From a virus (taxonomy: Duplodnaviria > Heunggongvirae > Uroviricota > Caudoviricetes), in the IMG/VR virus record IMGVR_UViG_2877251553_000001, positions 10,207 through 74,206 of that record: a DNA stretch of 64,000 nt, one strand, 5' to 3'. Positions 6,320-6,670 of the stretch are shown here, piece after piece. The translations under genes and the position numbers were made by a program. The notes under the pieces were generated by a model. The model was given only the letters and a program-made list of their open reading frames with translations, had not been told where the DNA came from and made no database searches. Numbering within the stretch: the first letter of the stretch is position 1; each line of letters begins with the position of its first letter.

Positions 6320-6670
6320 ATGACTCAAAACTATGAACTGATTGTGAAAGGGATCCGCAATTTTGAGAATAAAGTTACGGTAACTTTAGCGTTACGGGAC
6401 AAAAAACGCTTTGACGGTGAAATTTTTGACCTGGACATCTCGCTGGACCGTGTTGAAGGTGCCGCGCTGGAGTTTTATGAGGCAGCAGCCAGAATGAGCA
6501 TCAGACAGGTCTTCCTGGATGTTGCTGCCGGGTTATGTGAAGGGGATGAGCAGTCGCCGGAAAAGCGCCCCGTAATTTTAGAGGCGCAGAATGTATGGAT
6601 AACCTACAAAGGAAAGCTACCGGGAAGAATTACTGGTTCTCTGAAGACTCCTCCGGAATCACAACCTTAA
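6320..6670 (+). CDS. Hypothetical protein inside lysis cassette
   Basis: 116-aa ORF with GGGAGAG ribosome-binding site, no hydrophobic segment, between holin and endolysin. Confidence 0.5.
   Translation: MTQNYELIVKGIRNFENKVTVTLALRDKKRFDGEIFDLDISLDRVEGAALEFYEAAARMSIRQVFLDVAAGLCEGDEQSPEKRPVILEAQNVWITYKGKLPGRITGSLKTPPESQP

Follow-up and report, generated by a model that had tools for sequence, protein, structure and literature searches.

The gene between the holin and lysozyme genes

The stretch analysed here, referred to as the window, consists of 64,000 nucleotides of a virus of the class Caudoviricetes (IMG/VR record IMGVR_UViG_2877251553_000001, positions 10,207 to 74,206). Between the holin and endolysin genes of its lysis cassette is an open reading frame (ORF) at 6320..6670 on the + strand that starts with ATG and predicts a protein of 116 amino acids (aa). 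A sequence-only reading of the window had drawn attention to this gene, at the same coordinates, as an unusual insertion into a cassette of the phage 21 type. The gene is real and has the size predicted, but it is no oddity. Judged from its sequence, it is a member of the YdfR family (DUF1327, Pfam PF07041) located at the usual position of that family, and it is already catalogued: RefSeq lists a 'YdfR family protein', the cryptic prophage Qin of Escherichia coli K-12 carries a gene at the same spot, and 4348 of 5426 complete E. coli genomes contain related DNA.

The predicted protein matches PF07041 with 142.4 bits against a cut-off of 25 (E 5.3e-42, residues 1-112), as well as five PHROG families with E values down to 1e-68, phrog_406 (E 1.7e-67) and phrog_2091 among them. 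There are 319 homologous protein clusters, and the ratio of nonsynonymous to synonymous divergence (dN/dS) over codons 1-74 is 0.25-0.37, indicating purifying selection in all allele classes. On these grounds the ORF is far more than a chance reading frame. No NCBIfam match was found for the 116-aa protein, and a profile search of PDB sequences with it gave chance matches only (E 0.45). Proteins 100% identical to it are found in Escherichia phage records as 'putative YdfR family protein', those of 99-100% identity are named likewise, and the same 1.8-kb cassette is present in RefSeq at 99% identity, with a 'YdfR family protein', in hundreds of genomes. The feature is a re-discovery of an annotated family, the exact protein being already in public databases under the YdfR name.

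The order of genes in K-12 Qin, essQ-ydfR-rrrQ-rzpQ/rzoQ, is the same as in the window, where the gene likewise lies between an S21-type holin gene and an RrrQ-type lysozyme gene. Gene positions were compared in 323 related loci drawn from IMG/VR and the GTDB species representatives, a sample biased towards detectable relatives. The gene immediately upstream encodes an S21-type holin in 312 of 317 loci, and the gene downstream encodes an RrrQ-type lysozyme, 91-100% identical to that of the window, in 302 of 308. The ydfR ATG lies 4 nt past the holin stop in the window, and this distance is found in 280 of the 282 related loci compared. The arrangement in phage 21, in which the S21 stop abuts the R21 start and no gene is found between them, is itself real. 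The gene is thus 'extra' relative to phage 21, as had been proposed, but is the normal occupant of this place in the Qin-type lambdoid cassette of Escherichia and Shigella prophages, and the window cassette is a distinct and very common sub-type in which YdfR is the norm.

DNA resembling that for the N-terminal domain of the protein was detected at 8603 places in the E. coli genomes containing it (~80% of those complete), compared with 16913 places for S21-type holins and 11113 for RrrQ-type lysozymes. In E. coli, ydfR is found with only about half of the S21-type holin genes, and ydfR and the RrrQ-type lysozyme occur in nearly the same set of genomes. The cassette is among the commonest of E. 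coli prophages, being found in K-12 Qin, H-19B and many Shiga toxin (Stx) 1a and 2c phages. Alleles at ~63% identity occur in many Stx1a, Stx2c and Stx2 phages, in mEp460 and in H-19B. In the 1998 GenBank record of H-19B [accession number AF034975.3], the 400-nt gap between S and R is unannotated and contains a DUF1327 ORF at 16460-16858 (locus L093, 3497-3895). The family is otherwise narrow. An exhaustive profile search of 1.84 billion representatives recovered 85 clusters only, and a survey of one genome per species found the gene only in Escherichia and Shigella. Qin-like ydfR genes of 74-80% identity were also seen in metagenome-assembled genomes named Veillonella parvula and 'Bacillota bacterium' (loci L007 and L009), but these contigs probably represent binning contamination with Escherichia DNA.

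The gene has its own Shine-Dalgarno sequence, GGGGAGAG at 6305..6312 (+), which is located inside the last holin codons and can be read directly from the sequence, so that the ribosome-binding site of the sequence-only reading stands. The protein was also correctly described as having no hydrophobic segment. Its maximum Kyte-Doolittle hydropathy over 19 residues is 1.03, compared with 1.72-2.73 for the holin, the lysozyme N-terminus and Rz by the same measure, and it is therefore predicted to be soluble, without the transmembrane segment of a membrane-type holin or antiholin. The protein is acidic, with an isoelectric point (pI) of 5.2.

The surrounding lysis cassette

The late operon that is expected to carry the lysis cassette should start at the Q antiterminator gene, found at 2668..3030 on the + strand (PF06530 Phage_antitermQ, E 1.5e-45). 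A strong terminator-like hairpin, GGCCACGTCAGGTGGCC and then a T-run, was located by consensus scan at 6040..6056 (+) between a DNA methylase gene and the holin gene, and is presumably read through by Q-modified polymerase. The holin gene (6100..6315, +) predicts an S21-type class II holin (pinholin-type) of 71 aa with an M1/M4 dual start (PF04971 'bacteriophage P21 holin S', E 2e-35), which is 86% identical to S21-71 of phage 21 and 94% identical to K-12 EssQ. The YdfR-family gene (6320..6670, +; PF07041, phrog_406, phrog_2091) is followed by a 63-nt spacer (6671..6733, +) and by the RrrQ-type lysozyme gene (6734..7258, +; PF00959). The 174-aa lysozyme shares 94% identity with K-12 RrrQ and 34% with R21 of phage 21. 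Its N-terminus resembles a signal-anchor-release (SAR) sequence, in that it is Gly/Ala-rich and weakly hydrophobic, with a Kyte-Doolittle 19-residue maximum of 1.87 at residue 9. The spanin genes complete the cassette. An Rz-type i-spanin is encoded at 7263..7730 (+; PF03245, E 8e-29; phrog_13), and an ORF in the +1 frame inside it (7483..7689, +) predicts an Rz1-type o-spanin lipoprotein with a lipobox, the counterpart of which is annotated in K-12 as rzoQ. A further terminator-like hairpin is located past the cassette at 7904..7923 (+; consensus scan).

No promoter-like or terminator-like site was detected on the + strand between 6100 and 7260, though a consensus scan is weak evidence. As ydfR appears to have no promoter or terminator of its own, as the two hairpins bracket the cassette and as Q lies upstream, late co-transcription of ydfR with the lysis genes is a reasonable inference, and the proposal that it is co-expressed at lysis can be retained on that footing. 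A search of the cassette against Rfam found no RNA family.

At the end of the lysozyme gene (7251-7258), the window has GGGG where close relatives and K-12 have GGGGG. Because the G-run is one base shorter, the lysozyme ends 3 codons early, at 174 rather than 177 aa, and the GTG start of Rz is no longer overlapped. This difference may be genuine, as a mutation, or may stem from an error in sequencing the homopolymer. An ORF on the minus strand (6667..7008, 113 aa, TTG start), convergent with ydfR and matching phrog_22558, was considered and rejected, because it is antisense inside a strongly constrained lysozyme gene and because the length that is open among related loci varies widely (113, 106, 67, 54 and 16 codons). 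It is probably an annotation artefact that has become a PHROG.

An N6/N4 DNA methyltransferase gene (PF01555; 4981-6033) lies directly upstream of the lysis cassette. Two genes on the minus strand occupy part of the region between Q and the late genes, one at 3059-3541 predicting a 160-aa protein with a weak DUF4064 match, and the other at 3566-4387 predicting a 273-aa protein belonging to phrog_23561. Neither protein has a match in PADLOC, and the two genes look like cargo in the interval between Q and the lysis genes. Elsewhere in the window, Rfam matches above the gathering score were found at 32604-32802, 39923-39989, 48058-48145, 48208-48285 and 51018-51134. The families are IS009 RNA, int-alpA RNA, C4 antisense RNA, isrK sRNA and the ALIL (IS3-type frameshift) pseudoknot, and they point to mobile elements beyond the lambdoid prophage.

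Allele classes, distant relatives and evolution

Only the ~72-76 N-terminal residues are common to all family members. In the window these correspond to residues 1-76 (6320..6547, +), which are delimited as a conserved domain by alignments, by stand-alone homologues and by an AlphaFold2 model built from a 30-sequence alignment (predicted local distance difference test score, pLDDT, 89.9; predicted template modelling score 0.76). The model predicts antiparallel strands at residues 5-14, 18-27 and 36-43 against one long helix at 50-71. Folds of the dsRBD and RNase H-like types came up as tentative structural leads. The residues most conserved among distant members are Tyr5, Leu7, Val21 and, at the start of the helix, Tyr53-Glu54-x-x-Ala57. 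The remainder of the protein, residues 77-116 (6548..6670, +), is variable in alignments and is poorly modelled, with pLDDT <50 at residues 75-110. The window protein and K-12 YdfR share 80% identity over residues 1-74 but are unrelated beyond.

Alleles of 103 aa (the K-12 type), 114 aa, 116 aa (the window type), 176-183 aa and 268-329 aa were found, and they are extensively truncated or replaced beyond residue 74 or 112. In the longest forms (L251, 3001-3891; L257, 1161-2150; L088, 4001-4807), the N-terminal domain and the segment of residues 75-112 are followed by a coiled-coil-like region and by a C-terminal domain of ~130 residues. Neither Pfam nor the PDB contains a match for the latter, and a 296-aa form used as a PDB query also returned nothing. 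As far as the SLKTPP codons, the 114-, 183- and 268-329-aa forms have the same C-terminal part as the window protein, and the K-12 form carries another sequence in its place. Alignment of the DNA of the window with that of K-12 and of IMG/VR locus L178 shows collinearity with the long forms as far as the SLKTPP codons and again from ~25 nt before the lysozyme ATG. Between these points are ~47 nt in the window, comprising the last ydfR codons and the spacer, compared with ~510 nt in the 183-aa form, which encode a further C-terminal extension of YdfR and a convergent gene of 86 aa. The window allele therefore appears to be a shortened derivative of the long forms, and, more generally, truncation of the 268-329-aa forms would seem to have produced the common alleles of 103, 116 and 183 aa.

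This raises the possibility that the 116-aa allele is a functionless remnant, a decaying fragment of a protein of ~300 aa that persists solely through its location between two genes under selection. The window allele lacks the coiled coil and the ~130-aa domain of the full-length forms, from which it is separated by an indel of roughly 460 nt, many different truncations are in circulation, and some alleles are labelled as pseudogenes by the NCBI Prokaryotic Genome Annotation Pipeline (PGAP). However, purifying selection acts on the N-terminal domain in every allele class, versions of the domain of 72-76 aa exist as complete stand-alone genes, 73 of the 323 sampled loci carry the 116-aa form intact and with nearly the same sequence, and residues 1-72 of the K-12 protein suffice for the only interaction known for the family. 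Decay without function is accordingly regarded as quite improbable. One long allele labelled in this way by PGAP ('missing C-terminus'; L333, 1721-2056, from NZ_CP023364.1) is an uninterrupted ORF of 183 aa, and the call is apparently due to the overlap of its 3'-end with the convergent 86-aa gene.

The convergent gene was present between ydfR and the lysozyme gene in all 69 of the sampled E. coli cassettes with the 183-aa allele. It overlaps the 3'-end of ydfR by 52 nt and matches phrog_2572. Examples are at 3500-3760 (-) in L178 and likewise at 2220-2480 in L333, and the product is a RefSeq 'hypothetical protein' [WP_001557934]. Its family is essentially confined to E. coli, with one weak partial match in Salmonella. 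A small convergent gene also recurs next to the most distant DUF1327 members, which are stand-alone proteins of 72-76 aa or tandem doublets of the domain. Five such loci were found, one between the lambda-like tail genes M and L (L096, 511-966), one after tail gene I (L097, 1636-2160), one between Q with toxin-antitoxin cargo and a holin of a different type (L094, 5001-5811), and two others with a stand-alone or tandem domain (L091, 446-992; L092, 93-616). In L096, the DUF1327 stretch is the part that does not align with the tail region of phi80, which that contig otherwise resembles. In all five, the gene next after the DUF1327 gene is convergent and predicts 70-99 aa. The convergent partners do not form one family (hhalign probability 1%), only those of L092 and L097 being related to each other, and the recurrence is therefore one of position rather than of demonstrated homology.

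The presence of such a partner in 5/5 distant loci, at positions typical of morons, and in 69/69 cassettes with the 183-aa allele suggests a second explanation, that ydfR is moron-type cargo with a role outside lysis, such as a lysogen function, phage exclusion or anti-defence, and that the window copy is the orphaned and shortened half of a module of a DUF1327 gene and a convergent gene. It would also fit this explanation that related cassettes differ in the presence of the gene, which is absent from phage 21 and less frequent than the S21-type holin in E. coli, that the protein evolves faster than the lysis proteins and that the family is so narrow taxonomically. The window gene itself, however, shows only one of the three hallmarks of a moron, namely variable presence. 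DNA alignment revealed no convergent partner in the window, neither a promoter-like site nor a terminator of its own was found, and its base composition does not deviate from that of its neighbours (G+C 47.0%, against 48.6% for the holin gene, 52.0% for the lysozyme gene and 47.9% for the methylase gene). In addition, the partners are not detectably homologous beyond the single pair, PADLOC-DB contains no match for YdfR, for its long form or for any convergent partner, and K-12 ydfR shows essentially no expression in RNA sequencing (RNA-seq) under standard growth. Cargo of this kind is thus considered unlikely, though less so than a mere remnant.

Divergence at synonymous sites (dS) is of the same order for the holin, ydfR and lysozyme genes, reaching 1-1.6, and the cassette including ydfR must therefore be old. 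At comparable synonymous divergence, dN/dS is 0.26-0.4 for the N-terminal domain of YdfR, 0.07-0.13 for the holin and ~0.05 for the lysozyme. It was also considered whether an old ydfR allele might have been shuffled between young flanks, but this was rejected, as the holin and lysozyme genes are about as diverged at synonymous sites as ydfR is, and ydfR is thus simply less constrained than they are. Identical ydfR alleles (dS ~0) are nevertheless paired with holin genes that differ at dS ~0.9, indicating that recombination separates the alleles of the two genes.

Predicted role and comparison with known systems

The only experimental lead comes from the K-12 protein. Göpel et al. (RNA Biol 2026; PMC13232886) recovered codons 1-72 of K-12 ydfR when they used RNase G in a two-hybrid screen, and residues 1-72 were sufficient for the interaction. 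The sufficient fragment coincides with the autonomously folding domain of the AlphaFold2 model. The signal was stronger with the catalytic N-terminal half of RNase E (Rne 1-597) than with RNase G, Strep-tagged YdfR co-purified Rne 1-598, and the eluate contained nucleic acid resistant to DNase (PMC13232886). The same study reports that overproduction of YdfR caused no growth defect and altered few transcripts, and that ydfR is essentially silent in K-12 RNA-seq data from standard growth.

The context of the homologues, which had been named in advance as the check on a lysis role, gives a mixed answer. Close homologues are nearly always inside lysis cassettes, the distant stand-alone ones are outside them, and the sole experimental lead concerns RNase E and RNA. 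Taken together, this leans towards a passenger or accessory protein. The interpretation that we favour, tentatively and with a little less than even confidence, is that YdfR is a late-expressed, dispensable cytoplasmic accessory protein, the N-terminal domain of which binds a host factor, with RNase E the best candidate, and that it is not a core component of lysis. Going by the anatomy of the cassette, Q-dependent late transcription would cover ydfR along with the lysis genes, and translation of ydfR, starting 4 nt after the holin stop, would rely on its own Shine-Dalgarno sequence. With neither a signal nor a membrane segment in its hydropathy profile, the product would be expected to stay in the cytoplasm. 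The beta-beta-beta-helix domain of ~72 residues would serve as the binding module for the host factor, and YdfR may tune RNA processing or decay that depends on RNase E late in infection, any effect on lysis being indirect. Dispensability for lysis of the S21 type is suggested by phage 21, which has no gene between S21 and R21, and by the finding that ydfR accompanies only about half of the S21-type holin genes. The accessory interpretation draws further on the weaker constraint on the gene, the abundance of truncated alleles, the distant relatives outside lysis cassettes and the RNase E lead.

Several observations weigh against it. The interaction with RNase E was found for the K-12 allele only, by two-hybrid assay and pull-downs under overexpression, and overproduction of YdfR altered very few transcripts (PMC13232886). 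The RNA may have been bound by a contaminant, a possibility that the authors could not dismiss (PMC13232886), and the acidity of the N-terminal domain of the window protein (pI 4.7) is atypical of an RNA-binding protein. The supplementary lists of Paradis-Bleau et al. 2014 include the Keio deletion of ydfR as a hit for envelope leakage in the chlorophenol red-beta-D-galactopyranoside (CPRG) assay, while the main text of that paper contains no discussion of ydfR. The place between the holin and lysozyme genes, with its fixed 4-nt junction, persists among deeply diverged cassettes (dS at least 1), and most RrrQ-type lysozyme genes have a ydfR beside them (8603 compared with 11113 places); each of these would fit a lysis-related role as well.

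Such a role would most directly be that of a lysis-timing regulator, which would delay or sharpen triggering from within the cytoplasm by binding either the short parts of the S21-type pinholin exposed there or the N-terminus of the membrane-tethered RrrQ-type endolysin. Besides the nearly invariant place between holin and lysozyme genes with its fixed junction, the particular association with the RrrQ type of lysozyme and the Keio phenotype, this explanation could account for the purifying selection on the protein and for the lack of a promoter or terminator of its own, and the 4-nt overlap of the K-12 ydfR stop with the lysozyme start suggests translational coupling. Phage 21, however, has the same type of holin and lyses without ydfR. 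A pinholin exposes few cytoplasmic residues, the catalytic domain of the endolysin is periplasmic and YdfR has no export signal, so that an acidic cytoplasmic protein has little to touch on the pinholin or on a membrane-tethered endolysin. The pairing of one ydfR allele with holins at dS ~0.9 speaks against close co-adaptation of the two genes, the domain has distant homologues away from lysis cassettes, and overproduction in K-12 produced no growth or lysis phenotype. The Keio phenotype also has a plausible alternative cause: since the ydfR stop overlaps the rrrQ start in K-12, the kan cassette could have had a polar effect on rrrQ, the gene of the SAR-type lysozyme. Direct control of lysis timing is therefore thought to be improbable, to about the same degree as moron-type cargo. 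Both possibilities raised by the sequence-only reading, a lysis regulator and a passenger, are still live.

A combination of the two themes can also be envisaged, in which YdfR is a factor that binds RNase E, and perhaps RNA, and acts on the late lysis transcript itself, so that the timing or yield of lysis is set post-transcriptionally, the ancestral form working together with the small convergent gene, the transcript of which overlaps the 3'-end of ydfR. We regard this as a rather remote prospect, but it would, if true, amount to a form of lysis control that has not been described in lambdoid phages. Should YdfR modulate either RNase E or the timing of lysis, this would bear on prophage induction, on engineered lysis cassettes and on Shiga-toxin release, the last because the toxin genes in these phages are located just upstream and release depends on lysis. 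The convergent partners, the full-length forms of ~300 aa and the tail-region homologues may merit separate attention.

Lambdoid morons, such as bor and lom of lambda and the mor genes of phi80, are variable in presence and occupy sites in the tail region, as do distant DUF1327 genes. The window gene differs from them in having no promoter, terminator or compositional signature of its own. Small soluble cytoplasmic antagonists of holins that are encoded with or next to the lysis genes are known from other phages, RIII of T4 and LydB of P1 being examples. A likeness of YdfR to these would be one of function only, as no shared family was found in Pfam, PHROGs or NCBIfam and no structural match was obtained.

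S21 and R21 of phage 21 are the established experimental paradigm of lysis by a pinholin and a SAR endolysin. The phage 21 cassette (S21-71/S21-68, R21, Rz/Rz1) has a closely related holin with the same dual start as that of the window, and its gene order is otherwise alike, but in it R21 directly follows S21, with no gene in between, and R21 is only distantly similar to the window lysozyme. Long-form cassettes, such as those in the Qin locus of strain 144 and in IMG/VR locus L178, share the frame of holin, YdfR and lysozyme genes with the window and are collinear with it as far as the SLKTPP codons. They differ in that YdfR is 176-183 or 268-329 aa long and that the 183-aa cassettes include the phrog_2572 convergent gene, neither of which is found in the window.

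The closest characterised relative is K-12 YdfR (b1555; UniProt P76160) of Qin, which belongs to the same family, has flanks of the same EssQ and RrrQ types (94% identity each) and shares the 4-nt junction. The two differ in length, 103 compared with 116 aa, in their unrelated C-terminal tails beyond residue 74, and at the 3'-end of the gene, where K-12 has the 4-nt overlap with rrrQ and the window has the 63-nt spacer. Phage proteins that target RNase E include Srd of T4, gp0.7 of T7 and Dip of phiKZ. Srd, for one, binds the N-terminal catalytic half of the enzyme. K-12 YdfR was found to contact that half as well (PMC13232886). The data on binding of RNase E and RNA are for K-12 YdfR, and the window allele, with 80% identity over the domain concerned, would be a candidate for the same interaction.

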